Shown here piece after piece: positions 40,766-43,190 of a DNA stretch of 64,000 bases (the first letter of the stretch is position 1; each line of letters opens with the position of its first letter). The notes below the pieces were generated by a model. The model had not been told where the DNA came from. It searched no databases and worked only from the letters and a program-made list of their open reading frames with translations. This DNA is from Eledone cirrhosa (taxonomy: Eukaryota), in contig OZ024759.1 in assembly GCA_964016885.1 (NCBI GenBank), positions 3,100,001-3,164,000 of the forward strand. Direction: 5' to 3'. Both the position numbers and the translations under genes were made by a program.

Positions 40766-43190
40766 ATACTATTTATGGTTATGTATATACTAAAACCTTT
40801 TATAGTTATATATATTTTAAACCCTAAACAGTGAAAGACAGTAATTTATTACTACCTTATTACCAGTAAGATAAATAGCTCAATGTAATAACATCATTTG
40901 TTCTACAGAGCAGTTATATAGAAATTACATGAATCAAAGTTCCAAACCTCGGTTTGAAAGAAACAATTGTAAGCTAATAAATGGTTTGAACAGAAGTTTG
41001 ATTCATGTAATTTCTATATAACTGCTCTGTAGAACAAATGATGTTATTACATTGAGCTATTTATCTTGCTGGTAATAAGGTAGTAATAAATTACTGTCTT
41101 TCACTGTTTAGGGTTTAAAATATATATAACTATAAAAGGTTTTAGTATATACATAGCCATAAATAGTATCCTTAATACTATTAACTGCTCCATACTGTTG
41201 AGCTGACATACATAAATTACCAGTATGCTGATCAAAGACCAACTCCCTATGTCAACCAAGAACATACCAATACCATCCAAGAATACATATGAAAAATTAT
41301 TGATCGACAGTGTTAACTCCTTTATCAATAGAGTGAGATGGAGGACATTCCATTATGATAAAAACAAATCTATCAAGGTTAATAATACTAACAAATTCGA
41401 CTCCTTCGGCTTTAAAACCTTTAGAAGCCCCCCTCATAACACACTACTAAACCCCTTTGAAAATGACCTAATAAAACTAGTTAAGAACATTAAATACAAA
41501 AAGCACCGTAATAAAAACAACACGTTCTTAAACAAACTTAACACCTCTATTAATGAATTCAAAACTACGACTCCTAACCTTGCACATAACATCACAGCTT
41601 CAAATTTAGCTAAACTACCTAGCCGTAGGAACACGTGCAACCCTGTAGTTAGTACTAACTGTAATTGTAGGAATCGGGCTGATTGCCCTCTATCCGGGAA
41701 ATGCCTCTCTAGTAACATTGTCTACAAATGTAAGGTTGTAACACCCACGTCCCGTAGGGCCTACATAGGATTAACCGCCAATAGTTTCAAGCAGCGTCTT
41801 TACATGCATACCCATTCTTTTCGTAACCCTCTAAGAAGGAATATGACGTCACTTTCAGCTTATATCTGGAGTCTAAAAGACAACCACACCCAATATAAGT
41901 TACACTGGGAGATCCTAGCTAGGGCTAGATCGTATAACGGAAATAAAAGACCATGTGACCTCTGCGCCGCTGAGGCCCTGGAAATACTCAACGCCACAGA
42001 CCACACCTTAAACAAAAAATCTGAGGCAATTTCGGCTTGTAAACATAAATTGCACAAAAATTTCCTGTATTACAGCCCCACGTTATACCCTAACGGATAG
42101 TACGATCTATACGTGGATATTTTATGTCTAGATGTGGGAGCTAAGTATATGTTTTGTTTATTCCTTTACTTATTTGCATAGGTAAGTATATATTACCCGT
42201 ATGTTTTGTGAAGGTACGTATACCTTCTCGTACGTATATTTGATTGTTATGGCATATAAATTTATATATTCTGGTACATATGGTTTGGCTATGTGTATAC
42301 GGCAGTTTTGCGTCTGTGTGAGTATGCAGGTTCGTACGTATGGTGGGTGTGGGTATATGTGTTCTTCATGTTTTAGTTGACTTACGTCTCCGAACATTCG
42401 TGTATTTATATATAGGTATGTGTGTGCGCTTGTTATATACGTATTTATTTATTTATATACGTTTATATAATTATTTATTTATTTGTATACACGCATACAC
42501 ACACACATGTTTATATGTGCGTGGTTTTGTATACCTATGGTAAGTTTTTGCGTATGCTTGTGTATGTACGTATTTGTTTGCGTGTATGTATTTATTTATT
42601 TCTATTACTTGTGTATTGTATTTATTTACTTTGTTCTTAACTCTGTAGCGGAGTTTTCATTTGGTCTCCTAGTTAGAATTTTTGTCTACGACTTCTGCTA
42701 TACCATTTACGTGGTTTTGTTTTTGCGTGCTATTGTTCTCTACGCTCCACATATGACGTATTATCTTCGTTTTTTCGTTCATTTCCAGAGAACGTCTCTA
42801 TGCACCACCTAAGAGAACATTAGTCTACGACCTCTTTTATACCATAAACGTGGTTCTGTCTTTGCGCGTAATTGTTTTTCACCGCTCCTATTAATGACGT
42901 ATTATTCGTTTTTTCCCGTTCTTTGCCAGCGAACGTTTCCACGAACCAAAGTATCGTCTTCCTGTCTTCCTCCGGTTGCAACGTTTTTTGAAATATCCAG
43001 TTCTGCGTTTACAGATTGACTTTGTTAGTTTCAGAAGATCCCGTTAAGGGTGAAAGCAGCAATTCTTTGCTTAAACTTTAATCTGTTATTTTAATAAATA
43101 TTTGCTCTACGGTTCTTATATATTTGATATATATTTATACTTATCGACCCCTCTTTGGATTTTAGTCTTCAAATTTATTATTATTACTAT
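40766..43190 (+). mobile_element. RT-less Naiad PLE derivative with inverted and direct 5' pLTR and a 3' HHR
   Basis: 40766-40940 is the reverse complement of about 40995-41170. Partial HHR at 40940-40975; ORF 41225-42100. HHR agttt-CAGAAGA-tccc-gttaa-gggt-GAAA-gca..tgc-TT-aaact at 43027-43077. Confidence 0.72.
41225..42100 (+). CDS. Intact 291-aa Naiad N-terminal domain fused in-frame to a GIY-YIG endonuclease; no RT
   Basis: STKNIPIPS...FINRVRWR...FGFKT...PP...FENDL (Naiad N-terminus), then CNCRNRADCPLSGKC...IVYKC...YIGLT..SFKQR...H...CDLC..E...LN...CKH. No DD motif. Confidence 0.8.
   Translation: MLIKDQLPMSTKNIPIPSKNTYEKLLIDSVNSFINRVRWRTFHYDKNKSIKVNNTNKFDSFGFKTFRSPPHNTLLNPFENDLIKLVKNIKYKKHRNKNNTFLNKLNTSINEFKTTTPNLAHNITASNLAKLPSRRNTCNPVVSTNCNCRNRADCPLSGKCLSSNIVYKCKVVTPTSRRAYIGLTANSFKQRLYMHTHSFRNPLRRNMTSLSAYIWSLKDNHTQYKLHWEILARARSYNGNKRPCDLCAAEALEILNATDHTLNKKSEAISACKHKLHKNFLYYSPTLYPNG

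Follow-up and report, generated by a model that had tools for sequence, protein, structure and literature searches.

A reverse transcriptase-less Hydra-clade Penelope-like element copy in Eledone cirrhosa, probably a one-off chimera of two families

The open frame at 41225-42100

The window is the whole 64,000-nucleotide stretch of Eledone cirrhosa DNA that was analysed, and translation of its forward strand reveals a single open frame of 291 aa that runs from an ATG at 41225 to a TAG at 42100. The features within and around this frame are listed below, with A and B designating the two families to which its 5′ and 3′ ends are assigned.

40427..40762, forward strand: 5′ piece of the ORF of an APE-type LINE, severed by the left arm (Exo_endo_phos, E 7e-4, below the curated cut-off)
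40763..40940, reverse strand: left arm, a 5′-truncated copy of the family A terminal repeat in inverted orientation, facing the right arm head-to-head and differing from it at 2 of 176 nt; the outer end lies outside (TA)n
40941..41181, forward strand: family A terminal repeat (pLTR), 82.5% identical over 240 nt to 82-319 and 85.7% to 32915-32846
41024..41057, forward strand: bulged stem 1 of family A (GCTC-hairpin-TT-GAGC), which folds as drawn (z -2.27)
41182..41224, forward strand: leader, with bulged stem 2 at 41187-41203, a CTGAC at 41203 that resembles a branch point, and CAG two bases upstream of the ATG; one public contig, X4 record 12, spans 41152-41360
41225..41564, forward strand: N-terminal domain, aa 1-113, with STKNIP, RWR and FGFKT, ending ~10 aa short of the DKT motif (profile 99 bits, positions 5-107 of 111)
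41565..42100, forward strand: end of the linker, complete Hydra-type GIY-YIG endonuclease and stop codon, with CxCx5C, IVY, YIG, R191, H195, CxxC, E250, N263 and CxH; the start is set by public contig X4 record 14 and its loose end
42101..43187, forward strand: 3′ UTR and terminus of family B, containing a direct repeat of 77% (42675-42807/42814-42948); other copies stop at 43101 or extend past 43147
43027..43075, forward strand: hammerhead-like motif of family B, with the core CAGAAGA at 43032 and not CTGANGA (fold versus shuffles, z -0.41)
43188..43425, no strand: (TA)n tract at the 3′ end, recognized by sequence, the usual Hydra target (PMC8557442)

The original prediction described an intact transposon protein with its own start and stop that lacks the RT and thumb and yet keeps its frame, its Cys/His ligands and its GIY-YIG residues, and in these respects it is confirmed. 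The frame aligns in two blocks to 23 of the 24 full-length relatives, proteins of 649-741 aa, and the stretch that it lacks between the blocks is 414-442 aa long (median 425). The halves of the ORF were aligned separately to the relatives; when the whole ORF was aligned with MAFFT, aa 68-113 were wrongly matched to the linker. In profiles made from 22 of the 24 full-length relatives, P0014 and P0032 being omitted, aa 6-115 correspond to the N-terminal domain and aa 115-276 to the endonuclease; by these profiles the ORF has no DKT region, RT core or thumb and lacks most of the linker. The domain order is N-terminal domain, RT, thumb and endonuclease in 43 full-length relatives. The further claim, that this is the only uninterrupted transposon ORF in the window, holds in that the frame is open but not as an unqualified "only", as there are seven other ATG-to-stop frames of at least 180 aa, with starts that by eye are internal methionines of broken elements. 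Searched against the window by tBLASTn, the protein matches the endonuclease of the neighbouring element at 46558-46986 (49%) and that of a 5′-truncated element at 1844-2122 (42%), and has a short N-terminal match at 44693-44800. The CTGAC and CAG of the leader could be read, from their sequence and position, as a splice acceptor.

The name Naiad, which the frame had been given, is not retained. In Naiads the endonuclease is N-terminal to the RT, a CCHH motif is present and there is no canonical hammerhead, whereas elements of the Hydra clade carry their endonuclease at the C-terminus and have RWK and DKT motifs, CxCx5C in the linker, CxxC and CxH around the catalytic E and N, hammerheads and (TA)n targets, and no CCHH (Craig et al. 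2021, PMC8557442). The corresponding motifs of the ORF are RWR, CNCRNRADC, CDLC and CKH, with C146, C148 and C154 as the ligands of CxCx5C, C244 and C247 of CxxC, and C272 and H274 of CxH. R38 and W39 are invariant in 22 of 22 relatives, and position 40, an R in the ORF, is K in 16 and R in 6 of them. The ORF has no CCHH or cysteine pair between IVY and YIG, and no DKT motif or RT domain; both of the latter are present in the relatives and, frameshifted, in the neighbouring element at 44676. The RT precedes the endonuclease in the relatives and in that neighbour (44676-46983), and hammerhead-like motifs are found in the families of both ends. On the strength of its Hydra motifs, and of this domain order in the relatives and the neighbour, the ORF is identified from sequence as a derivative of Hydra-clade Penelope-like elements (PLEs), which have a C-terminal endonuclease. 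As the DKT motif and RT are absent, the copy is a defective, non-autonomous derivative. Hydra-1_Obim, the octopus element in the supplement of PMC8557442, was considered as the parent and ruled out by eye because its N-terminus differs from that of the ORF, which therefore belongs to another family. Two more Hydra families are present in the window at 44676-47217 and 681-2917; both are frameshifted and have long Asn/Thr-rich inserts, located between thumb and linker or before the endonuclease, that recall the N-rich inserts described in PMC3846280.

The columns of Y167, Y180, G182, R191, H195, E250, N263 and the Cys/His ligands are conserved in 20-22 of the 22 relatives; A251 is an alanine where all 22 have K. 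In the AlphaFold model, pLDDT exceeds 90 over about aa 151-280, the nuclease, which matches the catalytic domain of I-TevI with Z 9.6 and an rmsd of 2.4 Å over 89 residues, followed by T4 EndoII and UvrC. The ORF has no Pfam match at E≤0.1, a profile search of solved structures returned four rows, all with E≥0.15, and Foldseek returned nothing at E≤0.001, although its top rows are nevertheless GIY-YIG enzymes. Model confidence is low for the N-terminal half, and its fold matches are generic helices only. The protein is unable to copy RNA. If expressed, it is predicted from the model to fold its nuclease, and might nick AT-rich DNA; nothing indicates that the protein is maintained.

Two families of ends and a junction in codon 114

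Public contigs from 4 of 24 listed runs, among them X1 and X4, were aligned to 40700-43150. Runs of 16 studies contain words near-identical to this sequence; they carry many organism labels, one of them an air metagenome, and the four examined look like traces of the repeat family.

The pLTR upstream of the frame had been assigned to the 1-312 family, and its 82.5% identity to the repeat at 1-319 bears this out. The family A repeat begins inside stem II of the A hammerhead, so that in this copy the ribozyme is incomplete. Whole family A cores are present at 74 (forward strand) and 32923 (reverse strand), in both cases CCGAAGA and not CTGANGA. In the copy at 1-319, (TA)n is reached at the position corresponding to 41181, which is 5-6 nt short of where stem 2 would lie. 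Stem 2 (41187-41203) has no fold alone (z +0.78); it shares with stem 1 the prefix TAACT and the suffix TTGAGCT. A scan of the whole window for the stem motif gave 15, versus a mean of 6.2 and a maximum of 15 in shuffled sequence, a weak enrichment. The two arms (40763-41181) meet head-to-head inside the A hammerhead, ~30 nt upstream of the predicted cleavage site, and the template was thus apparently uncut at that ribozyme. This fits the report that uncleaved RNA is the main substrate (PMC11167929), and a head-to-head inverted arm is the arrangement described for PLE insertions (PMC8557442). In X4 contigs the LINE goes on at 40763, with the expected next motif seen once, in another element. 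With its cut LINE and non-TA site, the left junction is odd, and the locus has therefore been rearranged at some time.

The family B end recurs at 53773-53706. Having the core CAGAAGA and not CTGANGA, the hammerhead copy of family B is of doubtful activity, and in Rfam at E≤1 there was no hammerhead family among 150 of 393 rows, which held microsatellite and hairpin noise. Elsewhere in the window, at 5722-7251 and 15409-20390, there are tandem ~310-nt hammerhead-bearing units, retrozyme-like, that switch strand within the array.

That the downstream hammerhead belongs to a different family, as originally proposed, is upheld by a 3′ end that is unrelated to the 5′ repeat: the A and B ends align no better than shuffles in 9 of 9 comparisons, both positive controls (2/2) being above them. 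Family A is tied to the N-terminal half in other copies, by X4 record 12 (41152-41360) and by an X1 joint from 41110 to 41213, and family B to the endonuclease, by X1 joints from 42014 to 42839, from 42092 to 42753 and from 42179, 42182 and 42214 to 42928-42931. The joints within 42180-42930 also identify B subfamilies without about 660-820 nt of the 3′ UTR, the length of which varies in the family. GC3 is equal in the two halves of the ORF (50/113 versus 80/177, p 0.90) and above both neighbours, a result that fits one family as well as two close ones. As a test for chimerism, composition was set aside, given that there is no difference in GC3 between the halves.

The position of the junction follows from X4 record 14, which differs from 41565-42197 at 10 of 633 nt and carries a further 211 letters upstream that do not resemble the window. 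Of this loose end, the 30 letters shown, the last before the match, read by eye in the ORF frame as N-R-N-T-I-K-I-S-Y. Full-length relatives carry this same motif ahead of their endonuclease, with the consensus NRNTxKxSYS, and in the 44676 neighbour it is ILNRSTVKFSYS. Because record 14 leaves the window at 41565 for this thumb-linker motif, the junction is placed by sequence in codon 114, and the family of the endonuclease half is taken to have members that run into the thumb-linker. A near-identical relative with more of the polyprotein is, by the same sequence evidence, present. The original prediction had held that near-identity to a full-length, RT-bearing element would speak against a lineage, and this is largely what was found, in a relative that continues into the thumb-linker; among the contig rows shown, none has RT-bearing sequence of family A or B. 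No contig crosses the junction among the rows listed. The X4 contigs are similarly diverged from the two halves, with 2 of 116 and 10 of 633 differences. Summed contig depth in X1 climbs from ~6,000 upstream of the junction to an implied 176,000 downstream and to 2.3 million at the B end, being lower over the A repeat than over the endonuclease, and in X4 the depth of the bin that holds the junction is accounted for by record 14 alone (21.16 versus 21.2); these steps agree with a junction between families, but depth is not copy number and they were not counted as evidence. The 44676-46983 element was rejected as the parent, with 49% amino acid identity in the endonuclease.

Divergence, selection and the chance of an open frame

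Between the ORF and X4 record 14 there are eight coding differences, six nonsynonymous and two synonymous, giving a pN/pS of 0.91-1.24 with three transition weights. In this endonuclease set, an omega of 0.1 is rejected (p 0.001-0.004) and one of 0.25 only borderline so (p 0.04-0.09). Two listed changes in the N-terminal half, both nonsynonymous and from a possibly incomplete list, bring the ratio to 8:2 and pN/pS to 1.1-1.6 on 10 changes. All these values are thus based on 8-10 changes, from the differences listed (the table has 129 more rows). A dN/dS near 1 had been named beforehand as evidence against a lineage, and on these few changes pN/pS is near 1. Difference rates are alike in the UTR (2 of 97 nt) and the coding region (8 of 536 nt). 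At several sites >99.9% of the X1 depth has a letter other than that of the window (309,758 of 309,830 at 42006), so that the changes of the copy are nearly private. Tip changes give a neutral picture in every transposon copy, those of active families included. No amino acid change falls at a near-invariant column, an outcome expected by chance about one time in three (hand arithmetic). The sequence comparison gives no sign of a selected branch between the frame and the longer family; an old endonuclease-only lineage and a domesticated gene would thereby be excluded, but not a very recent subfamily.

For the frame to be open, phase (one in three) and youth (~1.6% divergence) are both needed. 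With a divergence of 1.6%, a frame escapes any new stop with a probability of 0.62, and any stop or frameshift with one of 0.34, 0.19 and 0.06 at assumed indel ratios of 0.05, 0.1 and 0.2, respectively. With phase included, ~6-20% of junctions of this age are expected to leave an open frame, a share that falls to 2% at the largest indel ratio. The intactness of the ORF is no greater than chance allows at its age.

Origin of the copy and related systems

The locus is most readily understood, with a probability of roughly 60%, as a young RT-less Hydra copy that likely arose once as a chimera, family A contributing the 5′ repeat, the leader and the first 113 codons and family B, fused to these in frame, the endonuclease and the 3′ end. 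Of the two origins first proposed, a chance in-frame junction is thus supported, probably as a join between two families, and an endonuclease-only lineage is disfavoured by the near-identical longer relative and by a pN/pS near 1. The chimera could have formed during copying. The RT of an intact element would prime at a (TA)n cut on the 3′ end of a family B RNA, copy 1.6 kb back to the linker and then switch to a family A RNA, which it would follow from codon 113 as far as the hammerhead region, and the other end of the cut would receive a short family A arm. Alternatively, a later genomic deletion between neighbouring A and B insertions would give the same product; within the chimera reading a template jump is somewhat preferred to this deletion, which is nearly as likely. 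In either case the open frame would be a matter of luck, phase being one in three, and of youth. Template jumping is a general property of retroelement RTs. The PLE of the anole cuts DNA that is AT-rich and elongates both strands, initiating at two sites within the RNA (PMC11167929), and jumps are invoked for in-frame inserts in the Penelope paper (PMC3846280); in the available text of the PLE mechanism paper (PMC11167929), template jumping has no occurrences.

A one-off deletion of ~1.3 kb in one family, or between subfamilies with a nearly identical ORF and different ends, is a distinctly less probable origin. The copy would then be equally unselected, and its unlike 5′ repeat would be due to a separate insertion or to a swap at the boundary of repeat and leader, possible as the A and B ends both finish in ACTAT. 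The identical GC3 and the similar divergence of the halves from X4 contigs are consistent with this, and internal deletions do occur in PLE copies (PMC3846280). In other copies, however, the A repeat is joined to the leader and the ORF start (X4 record 12 and the X1 joint) and the endonuclease is tied to the B end, and the stem in the leader has A flanks; it is these associations that argue for the two-family chimera. An assembly chimera, two repeat copies wrongly joined at the junction, is improbable, even though the window is dense in repeats and inverted arms, structures that trouble assemblies (PMC8557442), and no public contig bridges the junction among the rows listed. The sides share no homology that would invite a false join, and private changes are scattered at a similar rate on both sides, as in one old locus.

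It is little less improbable that the frame represents a young, amplified, RT-less subfamily, the fused RNA of which keeps its start signals and is copied in trans by intact elements, and the endonuclease of which may nick (TA)n on its own behalf or on that of non-coding repeats that carry hammerheads. The open frame with its native start, leader and every catalytic residue, and the confidently predicted nuclease fold (pLDDT >90 over about aa 151-280), are what such a subfamily would have. PLE machinery works in trans on pLTR-flanked sequence (PMC3846280), and the N-terminal region of the anole PLE is putatively nucleic-acid-binding and a predicted dimer region (PMC11167929). There is, however, no synonymous excess relative to the longer relative, the letters of the window are nearly private in X1, no such protein is present among the 183 relatives, and intact elements already have an endonuclease in cis; repeated PLE copying, moreover, would not regenerate mismatched 5′ and 3′ repeats. 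The least probable of these explanations, with very little to be said for it, is a host-domesticated nuclease gene. It would account for the intact frame, the splice-acceptor-like leader and the near-identical sequence in runs of 16 studies, but the matches in the four runs examined behave as a repeat family with many variants, and the changes of the copy itself are neutral and place it only ~1.6% from its family.

As a one-off, this is a rearranged copy of a known clade and matters little. If the two-family junction arose during copying, it would be the footprint of a Penelope-type RT jumping between RNAs of different families, and such jumping bears on the swapping of ends and on the mobilisation of non-coding ribozyme repeats. 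The frame also provides a naturally occurring Hydra endonuclease on its own, with which a role of the CxCx5C linker in targeting cleavage to (TA)n could be tested. Many copies sharing the junction would constitute an endonuclease-coding, RT-less PLE lineage, none of which was found in print in the literature searched. A newborn multi-copy element without RT, originating from two families, copied in trans and keeping a working (TA)n nickase and an RNA-binding N-terminus, is the most novel form that the amplified subfamily could take, and is as improbable; if it existed, a retrotransposon would provide the cut while relying on others to be copied, and might create targets for the genome's numerous non-coding hammerhead repeats.

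An N-terminal domain with a whole endonuclease and no RT is absent from all 183 protein relatives. These include the best 150 of 6,428 matches, none of which exceeds 52% identity to the ORF, making the missing fusion weak evidence. P0181, a 152-aa protein from another source, has a Hydra N-terminal domain in frame with the middle of an endonuclease at a different junction, without the GIY-YIG strands, which suggests that in-frame accidents recur at other points. Two candidates for a similar fusion were rejected, P0124 as thumb plus endonuclease and P0183 as N-terminal domain plus the start of the RT. No report of an RT-less or endonuclease-only PLE lineage was found in the literature searched (most subscription papers lie outside its coverage), and the main text of the octopus repeat annotation PMC13282606 has no mention of Hydra, Naiad or GIY-YIG.

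Compared with known systems, the copy most closely resembles the Hydra clade, including Hydra-1_Obim, in its RW(K/R), its CxCx5C, its CxxC and CxH around E and N and the lack of CCHH, and also in a hammerhead-like motif near the 3′ end, a (TA)n target, an inverted 5′-truncated arm and a length of <3 kb (PMC8557442). Unlike Hydra elements, it is missing its DKT region, RT and thumb and the greater part of the linker, and its 5′ and 3′ terminal repeats are of different families. With Naiads it shares an N-proximal GIY-YIG in a short frame and a (TA)n preference, but none of the features described for that clade, an endonuclease before the RT, CCHH, CxC, DKA and no canonical hammerhead, fits the copy (PMC8557442). 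PAc, a Poseidon element of the green anole (Frangieh et al. 2024, PMC11167929), is comparable in its AT-rich GIY-YIG cleavage, and its two-strand extension and two internal starts would explain two arms and fixed ends; it differs in belonging to another clade and having a full polyprotein, and no template jumping is reported in the text available. Other non-autonomous PLE derivatives, MRC1 and other non-autonomous Chlamys (PMC8557442), non-LTR retrozymes (bioRxiv 10.64898/2026.07.22.740005) and pLTR-flanked captured genes (PMC3846280), likewise are without RT, keep their terminal signals and would need an intact element. As described in those sources they are multi-copy or non-coding, whereas the copy documented here has an open endonuclease frame and is known from one locus.
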